Below, piece by piece: positions 7,599-62,930 of a stretch of DNA of 64,000 nucleotides (positions are counted from its first letter, which is position 1; every line of letters starts with the position of its first letter). The notes beneath the pieces were generated by a model. That model had not been told where the DNA came from. It saw nothing but the letters and a program-made list of their open reading frames with translations, and made no database searches. Location: the NCBI GenBank assembly GCA_036394755.1, contig DASWEL010000006.1, positions 4,475 to 68,474 on the forward strand. The letters are read 5' to 3'. A program made the translations under genes and the position numbers. Source of the DNA: Gemmatimonadales bacterium. Lineage in GTDB: Bacteria; Gemmatimonadota; Gemmatimonadetes; Gemmatimonadales; GWC2-71-9.

Positions 7599-8443
7599 CC
7601 GCGAGCGCGTTTCGTCGCCACCTCGTGAGCTGCGTGATGACGGTGCTGGTCGTCATCCTGTCGTTCACCGCCGTGCTCGCGCTGGTGCTCATCCTCGGCA
7701 ACCTCATCGCGAAGGGCGCGTCGTCGATCGACTGGGCGTTCTTCACCAAGAGCCCAGTACCGGCAGGACAGTCGGGTGGCGGCGTCGCCAATGCGATCGC
7801 GGGGAGCGGGATCATCGTCGGTGTCGCCGCATTGATCGGCGTCCCGATCGGCGTCGGCGCGGGTTTGTACCTGGCCGAATACGGCTCGGGACGGCTCGGC
7901 TTTTTCGTGCGATTCATCGCCGACGTCCTGAACGGCACCCCATCGATCGTCGTCGGCATCGTAGCGTGGACCTTCATCGTGAAGCCGACCAGCCATTTCT
8001 CCGCCTTAGCGGGCAGCGTCGCCCTCGCGATCCTGATGATCCCGATGCTGGCGCGGACGACGGAAGAGATGGTACGACTGGTGCCGAACTCGCTCCGCGA
8101 GGCGGCGCTGGCGCTCGGGTACCCGCGCTGGCGGACATCGTTGAAGGTCGTGGCGCGCACGGCGATGACCGGCATCGTGACCGGCTGCCTCGTGGGAATC
8201 GCCCGGATCGCCGGCGAGACCGCGCCCCTCCTCTTCACGGCGCTGGGCAACCTGAACTTTACGCTGAACGTCAATCAACCGATGCAGACGTTGTCGCTCC
8301 AGATCTACGTGTATGCGACAGGCCCGTTCGACGAGTGGCACCGGCTGGCGTGGGCATCCGCGCTCGTGCTGATGGGACTCGTGCTCGTGATTTCTCTGAC
8401 CGCCCGCTGGGTCACGAGGGCCAGATATGGTCGCATCCGCTAA
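7595..8443 (+). CDS. pstA: Phosphate ABC transporter permease PstA.
   Basis: Multi-TM protein with the EAA loop '[14 protein letters not shown]'. It shares a 4-nt overlap with pstC. Confidence 0.9.
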
Positions 8444-9203
8444 CACCCGGCTGCGGCTCGAGACGGCGCACCTCACCGCACTGTTCGGGCAACATCGCGC
8501 GGTGCGGGACGTCTCGCTCCTGTTCCCCGCGAACACCGTTACCGCGATCATCGGCCCCTCAGGGTGCGGCAAAAGCACCCTGCTCCGCTGCCTGAACCGC
8601 ATGCACGAGTTGACGCCCGGCGCGAGTGTCGATGGCGTAGTCCTGCTCGATGACGTGAACATATACGCCGGCGACGTGAACGCGGTCGAGCTGCGCCGCC
8701 GGATCGGCATGGTGTTCCAGCGTCCCACGCCGTTCCCGACGATGTCGATCTACGACAACGTCGCCGCGGGACTCAAGGTCAACGGACGCAAGCCGAGACC
8801 GGAAGTGGACGACGCCGTGTCGCGGGCGCTACAGCAAGCGGCGCTGTGGGAAGAAGTGAAGGATCGGCTGCACACCAGCGCGCTGGATCTGTCGGGCGGG
8901 CAGCAGCAGCGACTCTGCATCGCACGGGCGGTCGCTCCCCAGCCGGAAATTCTGCTGCTCGACGAGCCGACCGCCTCCCTCGATCCCGCCGGGACGCAGC
9001 GCATAGAGGAGCTGTGCCACGCGCTGAAGCGCCTCTACACGATCGTCATCGTGACCCACAACATGCAGCAGGCGGCGCGCGTTTCCGACTACACCGCATT
9101 CATGTACCTGGGCAGCCTCATCGAGGTAGGACGCACGGACGAGATCTTCACCAAGCCGAAGGTCGAGCAGACTGAAGCGTACATCACCGGACGGTTCGGA
9201 TGA
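8427..9203 (+). CDS. pstB: Phosphate ABC transporter ATP-binding protein PstB (copy 1).
   Basis: Walker A 'GPSGCGKST', signature 'LSGGQQQRL', Walker B 'ILLLDEP' and the PstB-typical C-terminus '[10 protein letters not shown]'. Confidence 0.95.
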
Positions 9204-10036
9204 AAGCGACTGCGTCGGATCGGCGGATCGACGGATCGCCGGATCGGCGGTTGGACAATCCGCCCATCCGCCCATCCGCCCATCCGCCCGTCCTCGAGTC
9301 CAAGTCGTATAGTTTTTGGTACGGCCCCACTCAGGCGCTGCACGAGGTCAACTGCGCGATTGCGGCCAACGCCATCACTGCGCTGATTGGGCCGTCGGGC
9401 TGCGGCAAGACGACATTCCTGCGCTCCATCAACCGCCTGCACGATCTCACGCCGGGTGCGCGGCACGAGGGCGATATCCTGCTGGACGGCACCTCGATCT
9501 TCGCGCCGGGGACCGACGTCGTCGCGTTGCGACGCCGCGTCGGCATGGTCTTCCAGCGACCCAATCCGTTTCCCAAGGCGGTCTACGACAACGTCGCCTA
9601 CGGGCCGCGATTGAACGCGCTCGCCCCGGCACGCGAGCTCCCCGACCGGGTCGAGCGCGCGCTGCGGCAAGCGGCATTGTGGGATGAGGTATCCGACCGG
9701 CTGCGCGAGCCCGGGACATCGCTCTCGGGGGGACAGCAGCAGCGGCTGTGCATCGCGCGGGCGCTGGCGAACGAGCCGGAGATGCTGTTGATGGACGAGC
9801 CCTGCTCGGCACTCGATCCGATTGCGACCCAGCGCATCGAGGAGCTGCTGGTCGAACTGAAAAAGACATACACTATCGTTATCGTGACGCACAACATGCA
9901 GCAGGCGGCACGGGTTTCGGATTACACTGGGTTCTTCTACGTGGGCCGTCTGGTGGAGTTCGGCGTGACCCAGCAGGTCTTTACTCGGCCCGCCGATGAA
10001 CGCACGGAAGCTTATATCACAGGAAGGTTCGGATGA
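9200..10036 (+). CDS. pstB: Phosphate ABC transporter ATP-binding protein PstB (copy 2), with a low-complexity N-terminal extension.
   Basis: Walker A 'GPSGCGKTT', 'LSGGQQQRL', 'MLLMDEP' and C-terminus '[10 protein letters not shown]'. The ATG overlaps the pstB1 stop (ATGA). No in-frame ATG/GTG/TTG lies between the repeat region and the conserved core. Confidence 0.9.
9217..9289. repeat. Two adjacent tandem octamer arrays, (GGATCGNC)x4 and (ATCCGCCC)x4, that form an imperfect inverted repeat.
   Basis: Read directly: ggatcggc ggatcgac ggatcgcc ggatcggc at 9217-9248, and atccgccc x4 at 9258-9289. The reverse complement of the second unit (GGATGGGC in register) differs from the first unit at one position. 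Confidence 0.8.
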
Positions 10037-10719
10037 ACGCACAAGCCACGAGTCATCGGCATTTTCACGACGAGCTGTCGGAGCTCAAAGTCGCGCTGCT
10101 CAACATGTCCGGCGAGGCGCAGGCGGCGCTCGCCGCGGCGGTCGAAGCAGTGCTCCAGCGAGATGGCGAGAAGGCGCAAAGCGTGATCGCCGGCGATCGC
10201 GAGGTCGACCATCTCGAGCTGGAGGTCGAGGAGACGGTGATCCGTCTGCTGGCGACCCAGCAGCCGATGGCCCGCGATCTCCGGTTCCTCACGGCCGCGA
10301 TGAAGATCTCCAACGATCTGGAGCGCGTCGGCGATCACGCCGTCAACATCGCGCAGTCAGCCGAGCGTCTGCTCGCCAGCCGCCCGATCATTCCCGAGCC
10401 CGAGCTCCTCGAGATGGCGCGCCAGGCCCGCACGATGCTCGCCGACGCGCTCGACGCGTTTGTGCGCGGCGATGCGCAGGCCGGCCGCGCGATCTGCCGC
10501 CGCGACGACAGCGTGGACGCGCTCCACGCGTCGATGTTCCGGATCCTCCTCACGCACATGATGGAGGACCCGCACATCATCGGCACGGCGATGGAGCTGT
10601 TCCTGGTGAGCCGGAACCTCGAGCGCGTCGCGGACCTCGCCACCAACATCGCCGAGGATGTGGTGTTCCTCGTGGAAGGCAAGTCGATCAAACACCATGC
10701 GGAGGACATCGGAGAGTAG
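10033..10719 (+). CDS. phoU: Phosphate signalling complex protein PhoU.
   Basis: Two PhoU repeats with '[13 protein letters not shown]' and '[15 protein letters not shown]'. Shares a 4-nt overlap with pstB2. Confidence 0.95.
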
Positions 10720-11096
10720 TGCCGACGATTCTGTTTTTGTGCGTGAAGAACTCCGCGCGCAGCCAGATGGCGGAGGGATTGGCTCGATCGATGGCGCCCC
10801 CTGGCTACCGTTTCGTGAGCGCGGGCTCCGATCCCGGAACAGTCAATCCGCTCGCCATTCAAGCACTCGCCGAGGAACGGATCGACATCTCGTCGCACCG
10901 CGCCAAAGGTCTGGCGAGCGTGCCGCTCGACGATGTCGAGACGATTGTGACGCTGTGCGCTGAGGGAGTTTGTCCGATCGTCCCAGGACACGTCCATCGA
11001 CTCCACTGGCCGCTGCCGGATCCGAACGACCTCACGAGCTTCCGCGCGGTGCGCGACGAGCTGCGTCGCCGGCTTCCGGGGCTGTGGAATCAGTAA
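10719..11096 (+). CDS. arsC: Arsenate reductase of the thioredoxin-coupled LMW-PTP family (ArsC).
   Basis: P-loop 'LCVKNSARSQMAEG' (CX5R-S). 'TLCAEGVCPIVP' carries both downstream Cys residues corresponding to Cys82/Cys89 of S. aureus pI258 ArsC. 'HWPLPDP' is also present. The GTG at 10719 overlaps the phoU TAG. This is the last 125 codons of track ORF 9996..11096. Confidence 0.75.
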   Translation: MPTILFLCVKNSARSQMAEGLARSMAPPGYRFVSAGSDPGTVNPLAIQALAEERIDISSHRAKGLASVPLDDVETIVTLCAEGVCPIVPGHVHRLHWPLPDPNDLTSFRAVRDELRRRLPGLWNQ

Positions 11097-16253: not shown

Positions 16254-16757
16254 ATGGACTTGAATCGCATTCTGCGCGAGGGCTTCATCGCCGGATGCAT
16301 CGGGGCGGCGGCCGTCGCGATCTGGTTTCTCATCGTAGACGTCATCAACGGCCAGCCGCTCTTCACGCCCGCGATGCTCGGCAGTGCGGTATTCTGGGGC
16401 GCGACGGGATCAGAGCACGTCATCATCGAGCCCGCCCGCATCTTCGGCTACACCATGATTCACGTCAGCGCCTTCGTCGTCGTGGGCTGCATCGCCGCCG
16501 CGCTCGCCGCCGAGGTCGAGTACGCGCCTTCTACGCTGTTTCTCGTGATCGTGGGATTCTGTTTCTTCGAGGTCGGGTTCTACATCCTCGTCGCCCTGCT
16601 CGCCAAGCCACTGCTCGGCTATCTCGCGTGGTGGAACGTGGCTATCGGCAACGGATTGGCCGCGTTTGCGATGGGGTACTACCTGTGGCGGGAGCATCCA
16701 CGAATCGGCGAAGAGCTGCGCCGTCACCCTCTGGGAGAGACAGAGGACGGAGAATAA
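16254..16757 (+). CDS. Hypothetical integral membrane protein (about 4 predicted helices).
   Basis: Hydrophobic helices such as 'IAGCIGAAAVAIWFLIV' and 'FVVVGCIAAALAA'. I recognise no family. Confidence 0.5.
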   Translation: MDLNRILREGFIAGCIGAAAVAIWFLIVDVINGQPLFTPAMLGSAVFWGATGSEHVIIEPARIFGYTMIHVSAFVVVGCIAAALAAEVEYAPSTLFLVIVGFCFFEVGFYILVALLAKPLLGYLAWWNVAIGNGLAAFAMGYYLWREHPRIGEELRRHPLGETEDGE

Positions 16758-16836
16758 CGTGCGGCGTGGGGCATGCGGCATATGCACGAAACCATCATTG
16801 CCGTGCCGCACGCCGCACGTTTAACGCCGCACGTCG
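16757..16836. repeat. Palindromic repeat element with termini ACGTGCGGCGTG...CACGCCGCACGT and heptamer-built arms. It likely also serves as the terminator for the + strand gene.
   Basis: Left terminus at 16757-16768 and right terminus at 16809-16820, followed by TTT. An extra half-copy ACGCCGCACGT lies at 16824-16834. The same 12-nt termini occur at 61895/61988. Confidence 0.65.
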
Positions 16837-17618
16837 TAGGCCTCCTCCGGCACCTTCGTTTCAGCATCCCCTCTTTGGTCCCAAACTGAGTATCGGAACC
16901 AGACGACCGTCATCACAATCCAGAGCATCAGCCCGCCCAACACCCACATCAGTAGTCCGCCGATTTGCTGATCATCCAACGGAGATAGTCCGCCCACCCT
17001 GGGCGCAGTCGCATAGAACGGATAGAGCACCGAATCCGATAACGTGATCAGGGCGCCCGTGACGGACATCGGAATGCCCAGTAAGAACAGATAGAGCATC
17101 TGCACGAGATGCTGCGCGCGCGGCAACTCCGGCACCGGCGACAGCACCGGCCACCACATGATCACGGCCGTCGTGAGAAAGACGAGATGCTGGGCGATAT
17201 GCAGGTTGTGATGACGCAGCGCCGCTTCGTACAACGCGGGGACGTGCCAGATCACGATTGGCGCAGTAAAGATGGTGGCCGCGGCGAGCGGCCGGGTGAC
17301 GACGCGAGCGATCGCCATCACCCAGCGGGGCCGCAGCAACGGCCGAATGACATGCGCCGGCGTGCCGTAGAGCAGCAGCGGCGGGAATACGAGCGTCAGT
17401 AACAGGTGCTGCGCCATGTGGGCACTGAACAGGTAGGTATCGGAGAGATTGTGCAGCGGTCCATTCAAGGCCACAAACAGTACGACGAGGGCCCCGAAGA
17501 AACTTGCGACGTGCCGGCGTGCCGACCTGTGACCCCCCAAAAAGACGTAAAGCCCGCCCAGGAGGACGAGCCCGATCAGCACGCTGGGATGGAGATCCCA
17601 CCTATTCCAGGGGCTCAC
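16821..17618 (-). CDS. ctaG: Cytochrome c oxidase assembly factor CtaG (caa3-type, membrane).
   Basis: Multi-TM protein with 'FSAHMAQHLLLTLVFPPLL' and 'HIAQHLVFL', which are Caa3_CtaG-like. It is the last gene of the oxidase operon and overlaps ctaF by 4 nt. Confidence 0.75.
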   Translation of the reverse strand: MSPWNRWDLHPSVLIGLVLLGGLYVFLGGHRSARRHVASFFGALVVLFVALNGPLHNLSDTYLFSAHMAQHLLLTLVFPPLLLYGTPAHVIRPLLRPRWVMAIARVVTRPLAAATIFTAPIVIWHVPALYEAALRHHNLHIAQHLVFLTTAVIMWWPVLSPVPELPRAQHLVQMLYLFLLGIPMSVTGALITLSDSVLYPFYATAPRVGGLSPLDDQQIGGLLMWVLGGLMLWIVMTVVWFRYSVWDQRGDAETKVPEEAYDVRR

Positions 17619-22120: not shown

Positions 22121-22202
22121 GCGACCGTGGCGGAATTGGCAGACGCGCCAGCCTTAGGAGCTGGTGGGGCAACCCGTGGGGGTTCGAGTCCCTCCGGTCG
22201 CA
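22121..22202 (+). tRNA. tRNA-Leu, anticodon TAG, class II with a long variable arm.
   Basis: Acceptor stem GCGACCG/CGGTCGC plus discriminator A. D-arm 'GGCGGAATTGGCAGACGCGCC', anticodon loop 'CTTAGGA', long variable arm and T-arm 'GGGGGTTCGAGTCCCTC'. CCA is not encoded. Confidence 0.9.
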
Positions 22203-22212
22203 TCCTAACTCC

Positions 22213-22288
22213 CGTGCGTCGTGCGTGGTACGTCGTGCGTCGGGACCTTCGCGACCCGCCACGTACGACGCACGACGCACGACGCACG
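22213..22288. repeat. Hairpin built from inverted tandem heptamer arrays, (CGTGCGT)x4 and (ACGCACG)x4.
   Basis: Left arm 22213-22240: cgtgcgt cgtgcgt ggtacgt cgtgcgt. Right arm 22261-22288: acgtacg acgcacg acgcacg acgcacg. The spacer is 20 nt. It lies between tRNA-Leu and tig. Confidence 0.75.
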
Positions 22289-22305
22289 ATTAGATTTCGC
22301 GCAAC

Positions 22306-24226: not shown

Positions 24227-25477
24227 ATGTCCCACGACAAGCATCTCCGCTGCTCGTTTTGCGGTAAATCGAAGGATTCAGTCCGGAAGTTCATCTCCGG
24301 GCCGTCCGTCTATATCTGCAATGAGTGCATCGCGCTTTGCAATGAGATTCTGGCGGAGGACGAAGAGCGCGAAGTCGCCGAAGCCATCACGCAGGTCCCC
24401 ACGCCTGCCGAAATCAAGGATGTGCTGGACCAGTACGTGATCGGGCAGGACCGCGCCAAGAAGACCCTCGCCGTCGCCGTCTACAATCACTACAAGCGGA
24501 TCAATTCGCACTCGGGCCGCGATAACGAGGTCGAGCTCGACAAGAGCAACATCCTGTTGATTGGCCCGACGGGGGTCGGCAAGACGCTCCTGGCGCAAAC
24601 GTTGGCCCGAATTCTGGACGTGCCGTTCACGATTGCCGACGCCACCACCCTCACCGAGGCTGGCTACGTCGGTGAGGACGTCGAAAACATCCTCGTGCGC
24701 CTGCTGCAAGCCGCCGATTTCAACGTTTCCGAGGCCGAGCGGGGCATCGTCTATATCGACGAGATCGACAAGATCGCGCGCAAGTCAGAAAACCCCAGCA
24801 TCACGCGCGACGTCTCGGGCGAAGGTGTGCAGCAGGCGCTGCTCAAGATTCTGGAAGGCACAGTCGCGAGCGTGCCGCCGCAGGGCGGCCGCAAGCATCC
24901 GCAGCAGGAATACATCCAGGTCAACACCAAGGACATCCTGTTCATCTGCGGCGGCGCGTTCGACGGGCTCGAGAAGATCATCGAATCCCGCACAGGCCGG
25001 CGCCAGATCGGCTTCACCAAGGAAGAGGTGGCTGAAGGTGTCGCCGAGAAGCTGAAGAAGAATCCGTTCCAAGACGTCGAGCCGGACGACTTGCTGCGCT
25101 ACGGCCTCATCCCCGAGCTGGTCGGCCGCCTCCCGGTCACCGTGCCGCTCGACGCGCTCGACGAGGAGGCATTGGTCAAGATCCTCACCGAGCCCAAGAA
25201 CGCGCTCGCCAAGCAGTACCAGAAACTGTTCGATCTCGAGGACGTGCGGCTGACGCTCGAGAAGGACGCGCTCAAGGCGATCGCGGCGAAGGCGATGAAG
25301 CGCGGCACCGGCGCGAGAGGGTTGCGCGCCATCCTCGAAGAGATGATGACCGAGATCATGTTCGAGCTGCCGAGCCGCGATGACGTGCGCGAGGTGGCCA
25401 TTACCGCCGAATGCGTCACGTCCGGCCGCGCGCCGCTCCTCGTCACCGAGCGCCCCCGCCAGAAGAAAGAAGCCTGA
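24227..25477 (+). CDS. clpX: ATP-dependent Clp protease ATP-binding subunit ClpX.
   Basis: Zinc finger 'CSFCGK...CNEC', Walker A '[11 protein letters not shown]', '[10 protein letters not shown]' and 'GARGLR'. Confidence 0.97.
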
Positions 25478-26124
25478 GCGACCCTCGCTACATCGGCTCG
25501 TTTCCACGCGCTGATGTGTTGCTCGATCCTCCACTTCCCGAAGTCGCGTTCGTCGGCCGCTCCAATGTCGGCAAGTCTTCGCTGCTCAATGCTCTTGTAG
25601 GGCGACGGATCGCAAAGATCTCCGGCACGCCGGGGAAGACCCGGGCGTTGAATGTCTTCCTAATTCCAAACCTGGGGAGTGAGGAGTGGGGAGTGGGAGC
25701 TTCCGGGGCGCACCGTCGCGAACCACTCCCCACTCCCCACTCCCTGTATTTTTTGGACCTGCCCGGGTATGGATACGCACGGGCGGGCAAAGCACAGCGA
25801 GCCGCGTTCCGGGGATTGGTGAAGCACGCCTTGCGACGCGAGCGGTTGCGTGGCGTGGTCTGGCTGCTCGACATCCGGCACGCGCTGTCCACGGACGACG
25901 AGGCGATGCAGGACGCCCTCGCGGAAGAAGCAACGCAAGTGCTCGCAGCCCTCACGAAAGGGGATAAGCTTTCTTCAGGCAAACGCAGCACGAGAGAGCG
26001 CGAGCTGCGCGAAGAGCTGGGGCTGCTGGAGGATCAGGTGACGGTGACGAGCGCGAAAACCGGCGAGGGCATCGCCGATTTGCAGGAAGCGATTGCGGGA
26101 CTGGTTTCAGGAGTGGTGCAGTGA
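25411..26124 (+). CDS. engB: Ribosome-biogenesis GTPase EngB/YsxC, carrying an in-frame repeat insertion. The start is uncertain, because the 25411 ATG overlaps clpX by 67 nt.
   Basis: G1 '[12 protein letters not shown]', G3 'DLPGYGYA', G4 'TKGDK' and the conserved N-terminal 'PEVAFVGRS' context. Confidence 0.85.
25674..25744. repeat. Palindromic element with heptamer-array arms, (GGAGTGR)x3 and (CCACTCC)x3, located inside the engB reading frame.
   Basis: Left arm ggggagtgaggagtggggagtgggag at 25674-25699. Right arm ccactccccactccccactccc at 25723-25744. The loop is 23 nt. Confidence 0.8.
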
Positions 26125-41509: not shown

Positions 41510-42891
41510 AACCGCCGCCCCTCTTCTATCAGACGTTCAGCGTCAGCGCTCGACGGCGCTTCCGCGATCAGTCGAATGATCGGCTCGGTGCCGGAGGGCC
41601 GCACATGCAGCCAGCGATCCGGCCAGGCGAGTCGGAGCCCATCCTGGACATCGACCGTTGCATCACTAAAACGTTGTCGCAAACCGTCGTAGACTTGCTC
41701 CAGCCGCGCCCCCCGAGGAGCCTTCGCTTTCACGATCGTGTAACGTGGCGCGCGCGCAACCAGTGCACTCACCGTGATGCGCTCGCGCGCGAGCAGCGAC
41801 AGCGCCAACGCCCCAGCCACCGGCGCATCGCGACCGACATGCAGCGCCGGATACATCACTCCACCATTCCCTTCGCCGCCGATCACCGCTTTCAGCTCGA
41901 TGATCTTTCGCGCGACGTACGCTTCGCCGACCGGTGCGCGAACCAAGCGTGCGCCGTACTCCCGAGCCGCATCTTCCACGACAAGCGACGTGGAGAGATT
42001 GCACACAACAGACCGTCCGACCGTCCGAGCGTCCGAGCGCCCCAAGACGGCCCGGATGGCAAACGCGAGAGTGTAATCCTCGCCGATGGGTCGTCCCTTT
42101 TCATCTACAATCGCCAACCGATCCACGTCCGGATCGACCGCGATGCCGATGTCCGCCTTCTTTCGTCGCACCAGCGCGCCGAGGGCCTTCAAGTTTTCAG
42201 GCACCGGCTCCGGCGGTCGCGGAAACAGACCATCAGTTTCGAGATTGATCGCAGCGACCCGACACCCCAGTCGCTCGAGCAGCTCCGGCATCAGCGCGCC
42301 GCCGGCGCCGCGCACCGTATCGAGCGCGACCCGGAAGCGCCGCCGCCGGATCGCGCGAACATCGACCCCGCGAAGCGCGAGCACGGCAGCGAGGTGGCGG
42401 GAAATCGCGTCCGGATCCGCCTCCACCCCGCCGATCGCATTGTATTTGGCTCGTGGCAGGGAATCCCCCGCCGCCAGTTCGCGCACCCGCGTGCCCGCCA
42501 CACTATCAAGAAAGATGCCATCGGGACCGACGAACTTGAGCGCGTTCCATTCGATGGGATTGTGGCTGGCGGTGAGGATGATCCCGCCGGTGGCGCGATG
42601 ATGCTCGACGGCGAGTTGGACCGTGGGTGTTGCGACCAAGCCCACATCGATTACATGGCACCCCACTGAGTTAAGACCAGCGGTGGCTGCGTCGGCGAAC
42701 ATGGGGCCCGAGGTGCGGGCATCGCGCCCGATGACGATTTTGACGGGCCGACGGCCCGACGGGCCGATGGGCCGTCCGTCTTTCGCCCACGTGCCAAACG
42801 CAGCAGCCCAGCGAGCCACCATTTCGGGAGTGAGGTCCGTTCCAACCAGACCCCGAACTCCCGACACACTCACCATTAGAGTGTCGGACAT
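41494..42891 (-). CDS. glmM: Phosphoglucosamine mutase / phosphohexomutase family (probably GlmM by coupling to glmS).
   Basis: 'SGVRG', active-site 'TASHNP', metal loop 'AVDPDVDRL' and 'GGEGNGG'. Overlaps glmS by 16 nt. Confidence 0.8.
   Translation of the reverse strand: MSDTLMVSVSGVRGLVGTDLTPEMVARWAAAFGTWAKDGRPIGPSGRRPVKIVIGRDARTSGPMFADAATAGLNSVGCHVIDVGLVATPTVQLAVEHHRATGGIILTASHNPIEWNALKFVGPDGIFLDSVAGTRVRELAAGDSLPRAKYNAIGGVEADPDAISRHLAAVLALRGVDVRAIRRRRFRVALDTVRGAGGALMPELLERLGCRVAAINLETDGLFPRPPEPVPENLKALGALVRRKKADIGIAVDPDVDRLAIVDEKGRPIGEDYTLAFAIRAVLGRSDARTVGRSVVCNLSTSLVVEDAAREYGARLVRAPVGEAYVARKIIELKAVIGGEGNGGVMYPALHVGRDAPVAGALALSLLARERITVSALVARAPRYTIVKAKAPRGARLEQVYDGLRQRFSDATVDVQDGLRLAWPDRWLHVRPSGTEPIIRLIAEAPSSADAERLIEEGRRLCAAS
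42011..42042. repeat. Intragenic tandem octamer array (GACCGTCC GACCGTCC GAGCGTCC GAGCGCCC) inside glmM.
   Basis: Read directly from the sequence. It translates on the - strand within 'LGRSDARTVGRSV'. Confidence 0.6.
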
Positions 42892-48411: not shown

Positions 48412-48477
48412 AGGGCGGCAAAGGCGCAGGGGCGGCAACCTTGCCGCCATTGCCGCCCATGCCGCCCATGCCGCCCT
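48412..48477. repeat. Hairpin built from inverted tandem nonamer arrays (about 3 units of GGGCGGCAA type and 4 units of TGCCGCCNN). Probably a bidirectional terminator.
   Basis: Right arm tgccgccat tgccgccca tgccgccca tgccgccct at 48442-48477. The left arm at 48412-48437 is complementary. A perfect GGCGGCAA/TTGCCGCC stem forms the tip. It lies between the convergent mutM and DUF1854 genes and is followed by TTTC. Confidence 0.65.
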
Positions 48478-59676: not shown

Positions 59677-61827
59677 ATGCTCTCATACACTCGCTGCCTG
59701 GCCTTCGCGGCCTTCGTCCCGACTTTCGTCGTTGCCCAGCAAACCCCGACGACGTCTCCCGCCGCGCCGGCGCTGACACCACCCGTGGCGGCGGAGCGAC
59801 CACATCGCTTCGACGAGTTTGGCACCGTGCGCATCGACCAGTACTACTGGCTCAAAGACCGGAATAATCCGGAAGTCATCAAATACCTCGAAGACGAGAA
59901 TGCGTACACCAAGGCCGTCATGGCGCACACGGAGGCGCTGCAGGGACGACTCTACGACGAGCTGAAGGGGCGCGTGTTGCAGAATGATCAGTCGGTGCCG
60001 TTCCGCGAAGGCAACTACTTCTACTATACGCGGCTCGTAGAGGGGAAGAACTATCCGATCTACGCCCGCAAGCGCGGTTCGGTGAGCGCCCCGGAAGAGA
60101 TCATGATCGACGCCAACGCGCTTGCCGAAGGAAAAGCGACATTCCTGATCAGAGGGTGGGATGTCAGCTCCGGGGAGGATCTGCTCGCGTTCGCGGTGGA
60201 CACCACCGGTGGCCGTGTCAGCTCGATTCGATTCAAGAACCTGCGGACCGGCGAGATGTTGTCCGACGTCGTGCCGCGCTCCATCGGGGGCATTGCCTGG
60301 GCCGAGGACAACCGCACCCTGTTTTACACGAAGCCCGATTCCGTGTCGGTGCGGCCCTATCAGGTGTATCGTCACAAACTCGGCACACCGGCAGCGACCG
60401 ATCAAATGGTGTACGAAGACAAGGATGAGACGTATTACGTCGGCGTCTCCAAGACCAAGTCCCGCGCGTACATCATGATTCAGTCGTCGCAAACGATGGC
60501 GACCGAATACAGCTATATCCGTGCTGACCAGCCCGACGCGCCATTCCGCATCCTGATCCCTCGTGAGCGCGGTCACGAATATTACGCCAACCATTTCGGC
60601 GACTACTTCTACATTCTCTCCAACGACCACGCGAAGAATTTCCGGCTCATGCGCACGCCGGTCGCGCGGCCGGGGCGGGACAACTGGGAAGAAGTCATTC
60701 CGCACCGCGCCGACGTGCTGCTCGAGGATTTCGAGTTCTTCCGCGACTACCTCGTGCTGACCGAGCGCAAGGACGGTCTGGTGCAGCTGCGCGTCCGGCC
60801 GTGGACCCTGGGGGGGCAGAACGAGTACTACCTCGACTTCGGCGAGCCGGCGTACCTCGCCTACGTCAGCACCAACCTCGAGTTCAACACGCCGGTGCTG
60901 CGCTACGGATACACGTCATTGACGACGCCGTCGTCGACCTACGACTACGACATGAAGACGCGCCAGAAGACGCTGCTCAAGCGGGATCAGATCCTGGGCG
61001 GCTTCGATCCGGCGAAATATGTGACCGAGCGGTTTTTCACCACCGCGCGCGACGGTGCGCGCGTGCCTGTCTCGCTCGTGTATCGGAAGGGGATCGCCCG
61101 TCCCGCGCCGTTGCTGCTGACGGGCTACGGGTCGTACGGGTCGAGCTCCGATCCCACGTTCTCGTCGGACCGGCTGTCACTGCTCGATCGCGGCTTCGTG
61201 TTCGCGATCGCGCACATTCGTGGCGGATCGGAGATGGGACGCGCGTGGTACGAAAACGGCCGGCAGCTCCAGAAGAAGAACACGTTCACCGATTTCATCG
61301 ACGTGGCGGACGATCTGATCCGGCGCGGTTACACGGCCTCGAATCGGCTGTTTGCGCGTGGGGCCAGTGCCGGTGGGCTGCTCATGGGCGCGGTCGTGAA
61401 CATGCGGCCCGAGCTGTTCCGGGGCGTCATCGCGGGGGTGCCGTACGTCGACGTCATCACCACCATGTCGGACTCGACGATTCCGTTGACGACCGGTGAA
61501 TACGATGAGTGGGGCAATCCCCATGATTCGACATTCTACCGGTACATGCTGTCGTATTCACCGTATGACAACGTCCAGCGGAAGGCGTATCCGAACCTGC
61601 TGATCACGGCCGGTCTGTATGACACGCAGGTGCTGTATGTCGAACCGGCGAAATGGACCGCTCGGCTTCGCGCGATGAAGACGGATAACAACCGCTTGAT
61701 CCTGCGGACGAATATGGAAGCGGGACACGGCGGCGCTTCGGGCCGCTACAAGCGCTGGCACGACGTGGCGTTCGAGTATGCTTTTTTGCTGGACCTGGCC
61801 GGGCTGGGAGATAAACCGACGCCCTGA
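59677..61827 (+). CDS. ptrB: S9A-family serine peptidase (oligopeptidase B / prolyl oligopeptidase).
   Basis: N-terminal 'YYWLKDRNNPEVIKYLEDEN'. Catalytic Ser 'GASAGGLLMG', Asp 'DTQV' region and His 'GHGG'. Confidence 0.9.
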   Translation: MLSYTRCLAFAAFVPTFVVAQQTPTTSPAAPALTPPVAAERPHRFDEFGTVRIDQYYWLKDRNNPEVIKYLEDENAYTKAVMAHTEALQGRLYDELKGRVLQNDQSVPFREGNYFYYTRLVEGKNYPIYARKRGSVSAPEEIMIDANALAEGKATFLIRGWDVSSGEDLLAFAVDTTGGRVSSIRFKNLRTGEMLSDVVPRSIGGIAWAEDNRTLFYTKPDSVSVRPYQVYRHKLGTPAATDQMVYEDKDETYYVGVSKTKSRAYIMIQSSQTMATEYSYIRADQPDAPFRILIPRERGHEYYANHFGDYFYILSNDHAKNFRLMRTPVARPGRDNWEEVIPHRADVLLEDFEFFRDYLVLTERKDGLVQLRVRPWTLGGQNEYYLDFGEPAYLAYVSTNLEFNTPVLRYGYTSLTTPSSTYDYDMKTRQKTLLKRDQILGGFDPAKYVTERFFTTARDGARVPVSLVYRKGIARPAPLLLTGYGSYGSSSDPTFSSDRLSLLDRGFVFAIAHIRGGSEMGRAWYENGRQLQKKNTFTDFIDVADDLIRRGYTASNRLFARGASAGGLLMGAVVNMRPELFRGVIAGVPYVDVITTMSDSTIPLTTGEYDEWGNPHDSTFYRYMLSYSPYDNVQRKAYPNLLITAGLYDTQVLYVEPAKWTARLRAMKTDNNRLILRTNMEAGHGGASGRYKRWHDVAFEYAFLLDLAGLGDKPTP

Positions 61828-61894: not shown

Positions 61895-61999
61895 ACGTGC
61901 GGCGTGCGGCGTGTCGCGCGCGGCGTTGAAGACAGAGGTCGCTTGGTCGAACGACCTTTCCTAGTCATGCCGCACGCCGCGCGGCTCCACGCCGCACGT
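61895..61999. repeat. Second copy of the ACGTGCGGCGTG...CACGCCGCACGT palindromic element, with heptamer-built arms and an internal small hairpin.
   Basis: Termini at 61895-61906 and 61988-61999, followed by TTT. The left arm reads gtgcggc gtgcggc gtgtcgc gcgcggc. An inner stem AGGTCG/CGACCT lies at 61936-61957. Confidence 0.65.
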
Positions 62000-62002
62000 T
62001 TC

Positions 62003-62911
62003 TCATAGCACCCGATCTATCAGAGCACCCAGAAACACGACAATGCTCACGATCCCGTTGGCCGTGAAGAACGCGGCATTGAGTCTGGACAGATCTCCAG
62101 GGCGGACAAGCTGATGCTCCCAGGCGATCAGCCCTGCCCCGATTCCCACGCCGACGAAATAGCCGATGCCCAGGCCGGCGCCGTACCCGAACGCCACGAG
62201 CGCTCCTATGGCGGTGCCATGCAGCAGCTTCGCGACGAAAATGGCCCGCGCCTGCCCCAGCCGCACGACCAGCGAGCGCAACCGCTCGGCGCGATCGAAG
62301 GCTTCATCCTGCAGTGCGTAGAAGATGTCGAACCCCGCGACCCAGCAGGTGACCGCCAGCGCGATCACCAAGAGCAGCCACCACGGCTCACTCCAGGCGC
62401 CCGTGACGGCGACATAGCCGCCGACCGGGGCAATCGCGAGCGCGCCGCCGAGCCAGAGATGCGTCCAGTCCGTGAATCGCTTCGTGTAGCTGTACGTCGC
62501 AATCCAGATCAGGGCGACCGGCGCGAGCGCCGCGCACAACGGATTCAGCGCCCACGCCGCAAAGAGGAACACCACCATCGCGCCGATCACCGCGGCCCAC
62601 GCCTGGCTGATCGTCAGGCGGCCGGTCGGCAGCTCACGGCCCTGGGTGCGCGGGTTTCTGGCGTCGAGGCGGCGGTCCGCGATGCGATTGAATCCCATCG
62701 CGACGAAACGGGCCGCCGTGAACCCCAGAATGACGAGGATCGCGACGCGCCACGTCACCGGTTGCTTATACGACGCGACGATCACGCCGAGCAGTGCGAA
62801 CGGCAGCGCGAAGATCGTGTGCGGGAGTTTGACGAAATTCACATAACGGATGACGAGCGAATCGCCGCCAAAAGTCTGTCCTTCTCGACCCCTACCGCCC
62901 CCTACCGCCAC
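62003..62911 (-). CDS. ubiA: UbiA-family aromatic prenyltransferase. The true start is possibly the downstream GTG giving 'MNFVKLPHTIF'.
   Basis: 'NRIADRRLDARNPRT' (NxxxDxxxD). A second Asp-rich region 'YALQDEAFD'. About 8-9 TM helices. Confidence 0.85.
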   Translation of the reverse strand: MAVGGGRGREGQTFGGDSLVIRYVNFVKLPHTIFALPFALLGVIVASYKQPVTWRVAILVILGFTAARFVAMGFNRIADRRLDARNPRTQGRELPTGRLTISQAWAAVIGAMVVFLFAAWALNPLCAALAPVALIWIATYSYTKRFTDWTHLWLGGALAIAPVGGYVAVTGAWSEPWWLLLVIALAVTCWVAGFDIFYALQDEAFDRAERLRSLVVRLGQARAIFVAKLLHGTAIGALVAFGYGAGLGIGYFVGVGIGAGLIAWEHQLVRPGDLSRLNAAFFTANGIVSIVVFLGALIDRVL

Positions 62912-62930
62912 CTACCGCCCCCTACCGTCG
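62891..62930. repeat. Tandem decamer array (CCTACCGCCN)x4 at the ubiD/ubiA junction.
   Basis: Reads cctaccgccc cctaccgcca cctaccgccc cctaccgtcg. It is flanked by CTCGAC (62884-62889) and GTCGAG (62927-62932). Confidence 0.8.

Follow-up and report, generated by a model that had tools for sequence, protein, structure and literature searches.

A heptamer-array hairpin in frame within engB of a Gemmatimonadales bacterium, a probable copy of a dispersed palindromic repeat family

Palindromic elements that lie in frame in protein genes have a precedent in the Rickettsia palindromic elements (RPEs; review PMC10969869). We analyzed a hairpin of this kind in a 64,000-nt stretch of DNA from a Gemmatimonadales bacterium (assembly GCA_036394755.1, contig DASWEL010000006.1; the whole stretch is called the window, and coordinates are positions in it). 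The hairpin, of ~70 bases, is made of (GGAGTGG)x3 opposite (CCACTCC)x3 and lies inside engB, the gene of the EngB (YihA/YsxC) GTPase. Compared loci and contigs carry L numbers, and P0013 is the protein encoded on L081. As with RPEs, the palindromes are dispersed, give a long hairpin, are found in frame in unrelated genes at surface positions, and leave the open reading frame (ORF) and fold of the host protein intact (PMC10969869). The differences are that the host is a free-living soil bacterium of 65% GC, whereas Rickettsia is AT-rich, obligately intracellular and of an unrelated phylum; that the element measures ~60-100 bp against ~100-150 bp for an RPE; that it has tandem heptamer arms and no element-encoded peptide conserved across families; and that many families strike one codon position of one gene. 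Because phylum and composition differ, we describe the element as working like an RPE and not as a member, and the analogy would be a functional one only.

Tandem G-rich heptamers, often in convergent pairs, are also typical of the Xanthomonas GGGAATC arrays, the cyanobacterial STRR sequences and the Nostoc GGGGA(C/T)T repeats; in Xanthomonas, 70-75 convergent (GGGAATC) array pairs form inverted repeats (PMC4692102). Written as GGGGAGT, the window unit is one base from the Nostoc GGGGACT, and the engB loop of L010 has GGGGACT itself. The Xanthomonas and Nostoc arrays are described as intergenic, with one unit per genome, and are discussed as G-quadruplex formers, whereas the elements studied here have many units, a conserved palindromic centre, in-frame genic copies and a hot spot. 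Repetitive extragenic palindromic (REP) sequences and REPINs share with them two inverted halves and a spacer that form a hairpin, compensatory stem changes, and insertion into or next to existing elements, mostly extragenic and often at gene 3' ends (PMC3116915); in our loci, arms with GGAG-TG/CG/CA/AA-G units co-vary on both sides of a shared centre. Unlike REPs, the heptamer element lacks a conserved foot of the GTAG type, and a search of 1.9 Mb for a RAYT, which is a weak test, came back empty. To our knowledge, REPINs are not known for tandem-heptamer arms or in-frame survival. A separate 28-nt palindrome of the relatives, with a GTAG start, looks like a classical REP. MITEs (miniature transposable elements with inverted repeats) such as Correia, ERIC and Nezha are small non-autonomous inverted repeats able to sit inside ORFs and to yield in-frame fusions (PMC10969869). 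The terminal inverted repeats of MITEs have their equivalent here, the whole element being palindromic, but MITEs also have a non-palindromic core, target-site duplications and a recognizable parent insertion sequence, none of which was seen. Membership in the RPE, REPIN or Xanthomonas/Nostoc array families is not demonstrable, and the architecture resembles that of the latter two. A literature search on heptamer hairpins found no report for Gemmatimonadota or EngB.

From the evidence given below, we consider it quite probable that the engB hairpin is a copy of a dispersed hairpin repeat family of soil Gemmatimonadota, selfish or neutral, RPE-like in its behavior and with a REPIN/MITE architecture.

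The hairpin in engB

The gene and the parts of the hairpin are as follows.

25411..26124, + strand: engB (yihA/ysxC) ORF, following clpX, with homologues, Pfam MMR_HSR1 and PDB matches
25665..25757, no strand assigned: hairpin-forming segment including the outer stem, from the fold and the alignment with the empty allele L081
25673..25699, no strand assigned: G-rich 5' arm TGGGGAGTGAGGAGTGGGGAGTGGGAG, ~3.8 heptamers GGAGTGG (equivalent GGGGAGT), encoding LGSEEWGVG
25700..25722, no strand assigned: element centre CTTCCGGGGCGCACCGTCGCGAA, encoding ASGAHRRE, from the comparison of centres
25723..25745, no strand assigned: C-rich 3' arm, (CCACTCC)x3 plus C, encoding PLPTPHS, from the repeat search and Tandem Repeats Finder (TRF)

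The preliminary description of this DNA had placed an inverted repeat, (GGAGTGG)x3 facing (CCACTCC)x3, at 25674-25744. The arms, the arrays and the ORF peptide all agree with it: a repeat search located arms of 22 nt each at 25675-25696 and 25723-25744 (95% complementary, spacing 26 nt), and TRF called period-7 arrays at 25675-25699 and 25723-25744, the right one with 3.1 copies of CCACTCC and 100% matches. With up to 2 mismatches allowed, six occurrences of the 14-mer GGAGTGGGGAGTGG were counted in the window where 0.46 would be expected; the hairpin arms account for four of them. RNA folding of 25660-25760 gave -58.8 kcal/mol (z = -6.5), with none of 200 shuffles equally stable, and extended the stem outward by pairing UCCAAA at 25665-25670 with UUUGGA at 25752-25757. 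Compared with the empty allele L081, the net extra DNA is 69 nt within ~25665-25746, ~12 nt of L081 (GACGAGTCTCAC) being replaced. At the family level the centre reads TAC(C/G)TGACGGTGCACCGTCGCGAA, a palindrome in its own right, and the window copy CTTCCGGGGCGCACCGTCGCGAA has diverged from it; in L087 and L181 the centres read ...GGTGC(A/G)C(C/A)GCGTCGCGAA.

The host has the marks of an EngB/YihA/YsxC GTPase. The homologues of its product come from Gemmatimonadota and are named YihA/YsxC, Pfam recognizes MMR_HSR1, the motifs G1 (GRSNVGKS), G3 (DLPGYG) and G4 (TKGDK) are all intact, and solved EngB/YsxC structures in the PDB match at E = 1.8e-28. The hairpin is in frame between strand beta2 and the G3 motif. 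The alignment with B. subtilis YsxC (1sul) pairs query residues 18-63 with 21-67 and 89-206 with 70-189, leaving 25-26 query residues opposite 2 in YsxC and 3 in T. maritima EngB (3pqc). The net gain over the empty, 9-residue alleles found in close relatives comes to 23 residues (69 nt), close to the ~20 extra residues first estimated from known EngB proteins, and the added loop is Gly/Pro-rich. In an AlphaFold2 model (mean predicted local distance difference test, pLDDT, 71.5) the insert lies between strands 58-63 and 90-94. Because residues 68-87 have pLDDT <50, it is predicted to be a disordered extension at the tip of the beta2-beta3 hairpin, which is where the preliminary description had expected it to map.

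Gain of the hairpin by recombination and the engB loop of other species

We compared the 120 best homologues, of 73-91% identity. Many of them have a 9-residue loop, LIDESHYFL or LIDASHYFL; others of the 120 have 12-34 loop residues, many of unrelated sequence. One protein with the empty loop (LIDESHYFL), P0013, shares 96% identity with the window protein. At the DNA level, its locus L081 matches the window perfectly over ~700 nt of clpX and over ~570 nt downstream of the hairpin, and the differences are confined to one tract:

25400..25760, no strand assigned: recombinant tract with the hairpin, ~360 bp, from the mismatch profiles of the window against L081 and L082

Outside 25400-25760 the window and L081 show 0 mismatches; inside it they differ at 8-10 positions per 60 nt. 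The profile is reversed with L082, which has the same hairpin: per 60 nt, the tract itself shows 0-4 mismatches and its surroundings 8-12. Since the window is L081-like outside and L082-like inside, and L081 and L082 are uniformly diverged along the locus, the window is a recombinant, and its lineage gained the hairpin by homologous recombination from a related hairpin-bearing lineage. The right breakpoint of the tract is the hairpin edge. The segment is recent, and it is dispensable because near-identical strains lack it. Short imprecise remnants (LIPGPLTPLYFL and LIPESSRWSHAFYLL) are found at the site. Loss, to judge from these, is imprecise, and alleles with a pristine LIDESHYFL are therefore ancestral and not products of excision.

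The preliminary description had proposed an RPE-like palindrome inserted in frame. Its lineage-specific, in-frame character stands, as the segment is missing from close and distant EngB orthologues; insertion on the spot gives way, in this lineage, to import by recombination, and the likeness to RPEs is one of function and not of family. Neither of the two outcomes named beforehand as speaking for an ancestral loop was seen: no peptide of fixed length is conserved across phyla, and none of the relatives was seen to have the peptide but lack the palindrome.

The wider distribution was scored at 80 species-representative Gemmatimonadales engB loci (L001-L080), of which 78 were scorable, giving 79 sequences with the window. 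Scoring used the DNA between the N-x-F and D-x-PGYG motifs, independently of ORF calls. The loop DNA was 24-33 nt long in 40 of the 78 loci and 39-120 nt in the other 38. The two flanking motifs were in one frame in 79 of 79 sequences, including all 39 with 39-120 nt (window counted), so that the earlier statement of a preserved frame with intact G3 and G4 motifs holds for the window and the frame holds for every scorable relative. This implies, as far as reading frames can tell, that the ribosome reads through the element.

Most of the long inserts form strong hairpins. At least 12 hairpin families were found at the engB loop, mostly heptamer arrays with differing units (GGAGTGG, GGAGTCG/GGAGCCA, GGGAGAA, GGGGACT, GAGCACG, GGGGCTC, GTGGGGC, GGGGAGC, GGTCGGT, GGTCATC and GTGCGCG); a non-heptamer 28-nt palindrome, GTAGGGGCGCAGCA|TGCTGCGCCCCTAC, is found in engB loops as well. 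An EngB tree computed after excluding the insert shows a patchy spread of the insert types, with empty alleles in between. We then compared the near-site flank (90 nt upstream plus 30 nt downstream) with the distal gene. The near-site/distal divergence ratio was 2.5 for filled against empty alleles, 2.1 between different hairpin types and ~1 within the same type. Every hairpin type therefore travels with its own old, diverged flank haplotype. A single origin of all filled alleles was considered and is unsupported, different types having no common flank haplotype.

An insert that is invariably in frame, beside switch I and G3 in a functionally sensitive region, could suggest an adaptive peptide loop, making for instance a new 50S contact during assembly, with the DNA palindrome incidental. 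We find this most improbable: it is the DNA palindrome alone that is conserved between families and not the peptide, the loop is predicted to be disordered, its presence or absence is polymorphic between near-identical strains, and the imprecise remnants LIPGPLTPLYFL and LIPESSRWSHAFYLL exist.

Dispersal of GGAGTGG hairpins and related arrays

The metagenome scan used the pattern (GGAGTGG)2 N8-38 (CCACTCC)2 and yielded contigs L083-L202. The GGAGTGG hairpin family was found on at least 120 metagenome contigs, only three of the matches listed being engB. About 22 GC-rich copies among the matches listed have a common palindromic centre of 24-26 nt, TAC(C/G)TGACGGTGCACCG...GAA. By translation and Pfam, in-frame copies were identified inside an Asparaginase_II domain, in a 2-oxoglutarate dehydrogenase linker, in a membrane metallophosphoesterase (Metallophos, two contigs) and in the central loop of a major facilitator superfamily transporter (MFS_1). 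PLPTPHS-like peptides are encoded by the in-frame copies in these four non-EngB hosts. The dispersal anticipated in the preliminary description was thus borne out, with GGAGTGG/CCACTCC hairpins at many unrelated metagenome loci and in frame in four other proteins. Within single genomes, L024 and L057 each have one family at two places, in the engB loop and after tRNA-Leu, and L013 has a GGAGTGG element after tRNA-Leu with engB empty.

Inserts of engB with GGAG-CG-G, GGAG-CA-G and GGAG-AA-G units keep the GGAGTGG-type centre, which encodes VVRDGA. As differing heptamers surround this one shared centre, the heptamer units appear to change in concert on both arms.

This concerted change could also be read as growth in place, in which the hairpin was never mobile, a palindrome of the ancestral loop expanded by slippage and template switching, and the families are descendants of one old hairpin. 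Elements with GGAG-TG-G, -CG-G, -CA-G and -AA-G units sharing the VVRDGA centre would be expected from such a history, as would an array period that differs between the engB loop (7) and the site past the engB stop (8), and the empty site is itself a quasi-palindrome, its loop codons ATCGACGAGTCGCAC containing CGAC..GTCG. Growth in place is nevertheless very unlikely in our judgement, given that many unrelated loci, as well as four other proteins, carry the identical element, centre included, that it occurs at two sites of one genome, that the engB loop of other genomes holds an unrelated 28-nt palindrome, GTAGGGGCGCAGCATGCTGCGCCCCTAC, which is present elsewhere too, and that filled alleles of different types have no common flank haplotype.

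Some side observations were made on the metagenome contigs. A GGAGTGG element is hosted by the 2-oxoglutarate dehydrogenase of L157, where ORF residues ~335-370 form a second stretch, Gly-rich and then Pro-rich (GLGAGGWGLGGSAASAVPSLQAQGPSPQALAPSPQP), that resembles a further translated hairpin element. Among the (GGAGTGG)n hairpins in L083-L202, about two thirds have short A/T-rich centres, longer arrays, and GGAATGG and GGAGTAG variants, and the flanks are of lower GC around about one third of all copies among the matches listed. Because of these A/T-rich-centre variants and lower-GC flanks, the heptamer hairpin theme is probably carried by other soil or mat phyla too. A fixed-string search with the 14-nt core GACGGTGCACCGTC, allowing up to 2 substitutions, found only three true elements, the centre being too variable, and was abandoned. 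Calling in-frame coding copies by GC content at third codon positions was also dropped for poor discrimination, engB itself reaching only 0.62-0.72. Long stop-free frames in L102, L086, L168, L095 and L159 were judged non-coding from their Arg/Pro-rich look.

A wider survey of arrays covered 1.25 Mb, that is, the window plus L001-L080. It recovered 61 facing array pairs, 37 of period 7 and 21 of period 8. The 5' arm had more G than C in 49 of 51 non-tied facing pairs (p = 1e-12), and the mirror arrangement with the C-rich arm first was almost never seen. As the elements are palindromic, this G-rich-5' polarity holds on both strands. Arrays were stop-free in all six frames in 13 of 16 cases in the engB loop and in 33 of 42 elsewhere; since most arrays elsewhere are also stop-free, this property is not specific to engB. 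Two further orthologous hot spots were recognized, one after tRNA-Leu (period 7) and one after the engB stop (period 8), with units that vary between genomes.

The window has four additional array hairpins, all apparently outside genes or at gene edges. They are listed here with clpX.

24227..25477, + strand: clpX, a 416-residue ORF with ClpX sequence, its last ~80 nt inside the recombinant tract
22213-22289: (CGTGCGT)x4 facing (ACGCACG)x4, between tRNA-Leu (22121-22202), which it directly follows, and the next gene
16756-16834 and 61896-61998: hairpins with units GTGCGGC and CGTGCGG facing GCCGCAC, between convergent stop codons
9216-9293: octamer hairpin (CGGATCGG)x4.4 facing (ATCCGCCC)x4.5, at the junction of ORFs 8427..9203 and 9200..10036

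The ClpX Pfam domains are present in the L207 gene orthologous to the window clpX. Taken from its first ATG, engB overlaps the 3' end of clpX by 67 nt (25411-25477), and the conserved EngB core begins near 25480. The real engB start is thus uncertain, as the conservation of the N-terminus 'MRHVRPRAA...' may only mirror the overlapping clpX frame.

At the tRNA-Leu site the relatives have GGAGTGG (L084, L013), GAGCACG (L024, L019) or GTGCGCG (L057) units. The ORFs around the two convergent hairpins are 16254..16757 (+) and 16821..17618 (-), and 59677..61827 (+) and 62003..62911 (-), and both hairpins are at positions expected of bidirectional terminators. The octamer hairpin at 9216-9293 may form the N-terminus of the ORF starting at ATG 9200, the alternative being a true start downstream; the later sequence of this ORF (9200..10036) is presumably similar to the start of a PstB-type ABC ATPase. 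Octamer hairpins just after the engB stop of relatives (~10575-10720 in their loci) have the units GGGCGGTT, GGAATGAT, GAAGGACG, GACGCCAC and GCACGTCG and were seen in L008, L010-L012, L022, L031, L032, L035, L040, L041, L066 and others; the window has none, as its engB stop codon is overlapped by the next ORF, which starts with GTG at 26121. Two unpaired arrays of the window, (GACCGTCC)x3 at 42011-42039 and (GACGGGCC)x4 at 42742-42774, are roughly complementary, ~700 nt apart and C-rich first. Arrays with no adjacent facing partner lie at 62889-62927 ((CCCCTACCGC)x3.9) and at 48442-48476 (period 9, (TGCCGCCCA)x3.9).

The REP-like element of the relatives is a 28-nt perfect palindrome, GTAGGGGCGCAGCATGCTGCGCCCC(T)AC, with a GTAG foot, and is missing from the window. 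It was found at L081:900-930, at ~9982-10003 in L007 and L012, and at L080:4623 and 4843, L064:10205, L067:2110 and L029:53. Several relatives have it between the clpX stop and engB, where the annotated engB start ('MLRP...') is the ATG inside the palindrome. In other genomes it is in frame in the engB loop and encodes VGAQHAAPL.

Nature of the element and its implications

A hairpin in a coding region could also be a selected cis-regulatory RNA in the engB mRNA that tunes EngB output downstream of clpX by attenuation or termination, by RNase III/E cleavage or by pausing the ribosome, the frame being a secondary constraint. The fold is very stable, in the window TGTATTTTTTG comes after the stem and a complementary AAA before it, and similar hairpins of the window stand at expected terminator spots, after tRNA-Leu and between convergent ORFs. 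In about half of the species a hairpin of unrelated sequence is found at the exact same point, which could reflect convergent selection for structure. We regard such a role as very unlikely, however. Strains with identical flanks lack the hairpin, and the element is in frame in unrelated genes too. An intrinsic terminator was rejected: the terminator scan was silent, the loop is 26 nt long, the T-run begins 5 nt past the stem, and there is no sense-strand bias. In a terminator and promoter consensus scan over 16-30 kb the engB hairpin was not called and counts were at shuffle level. The T-rich tail was likewise discarded as a terminator signature, as it consists of Tyr-Phe-Leu codons and is T-rich also in empty alleles (TACTTTCTC). 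An Rfam scan of the whole window returned only the tRNA-Leu and nothing at the engB hairpin.

Selection on the sense-strand RNA was examined over 34 engB hairpins and rejected, with neither a G.U/A.C asymmetry nor a fold-energy preference for the sense strand. G.U pairs numbered 59 on the sense and 80 on the antisense strand, and the sense fold was the more stable in only 13 of the 34 loci. Given the absence of a sense-strand bias, the palindrome looks like a DNA-level and not an mRNA-level feature.

For the dispersed family that we favor, the layout would consist of 2-4 GGAGTGG heptamers in tandem as the G-rich 5' arm, then a short palindromic centre, then the complementary C-rich arm. Copies could persist in genes when their length is a multiple of three, the heptamer arrays are free of stops in all frames and on both strands, and the site is a tolerant surface loop. 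The arms might be homogenized by slippage within the arrays together with palindrome-templated correction, leaving the centre recognizable. Primary spread may have used a hairpin-dependent single-strand mechanism or insertion into existing hairpins.

Several points weigh against this reading. The 64-kb window has a single GGAGTGG hairpin copy. Recurrence at one codon position, in about half of the species, is unlike random insertion followed by a survivorship filter, and no other recurrent coding site was found within 10 kb on either side of engB in the 80 genomes. Each site seems to keep its own array period, 7 for the engB loop and the tRNA-Leu site against 8 for the one past the engB stop, a pattern that descent in place fits better than repeated insertion. 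Together with the recurrence at one codon, this pattern leaves room for hairpin-targeted insertion or replacement. No target-site duplication could be recognized in alignments of filled with empty alleles, whose boundaries are blurred by diverged flanks, and tblastn with IS200 TnpA and E. coli RayT gave no significant match in 1.9 Mb, a small sample. Mobility is inferred from distribution, and translation of the segment is implied by the DNA reading frame.

It is possible, although we hold it doubtful, that these hairpins represent an undescribed class of site-seeking elements with concerted 7- or 8-base arms and a G-rich 5' side, which recolonize and replace one another at the engB loop, after tRNA-Leu and after the engB stop, and which spread by recombination tracts that break at the hairpin. 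If true, this would amount to homing-like behavior with no known homing enzyme.

In-frame palindromes themselves are already known; what is new here is the unusual hot spot and the concertedly evolving arms. The in-frame survival of selfish palindromes, mostly viewed as a Rickettsia curiosity, would now extend to a free-living, GC-rich soil phylum, where it would affect at least four proteins besides an essential GTPase of ribosome assembly. Presence and absence alleles differ between strains otherwise identical over the flanking 1.3 kb, a natural experiment on the tolerance of a P-loop GTPase for predicted disordered sequence beside switch I and G3. Heptamer units that seem to change at once on both arms offer a tractable case of concerted evolution within a palindrome, and the recombination or insertion hot spot has a testable cause, target preference or selection. 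Hairpins of this kind inflate apparent protein diversity and mislead gene callers, the REP-like palindrome supplying the annotated engB start in relatives.

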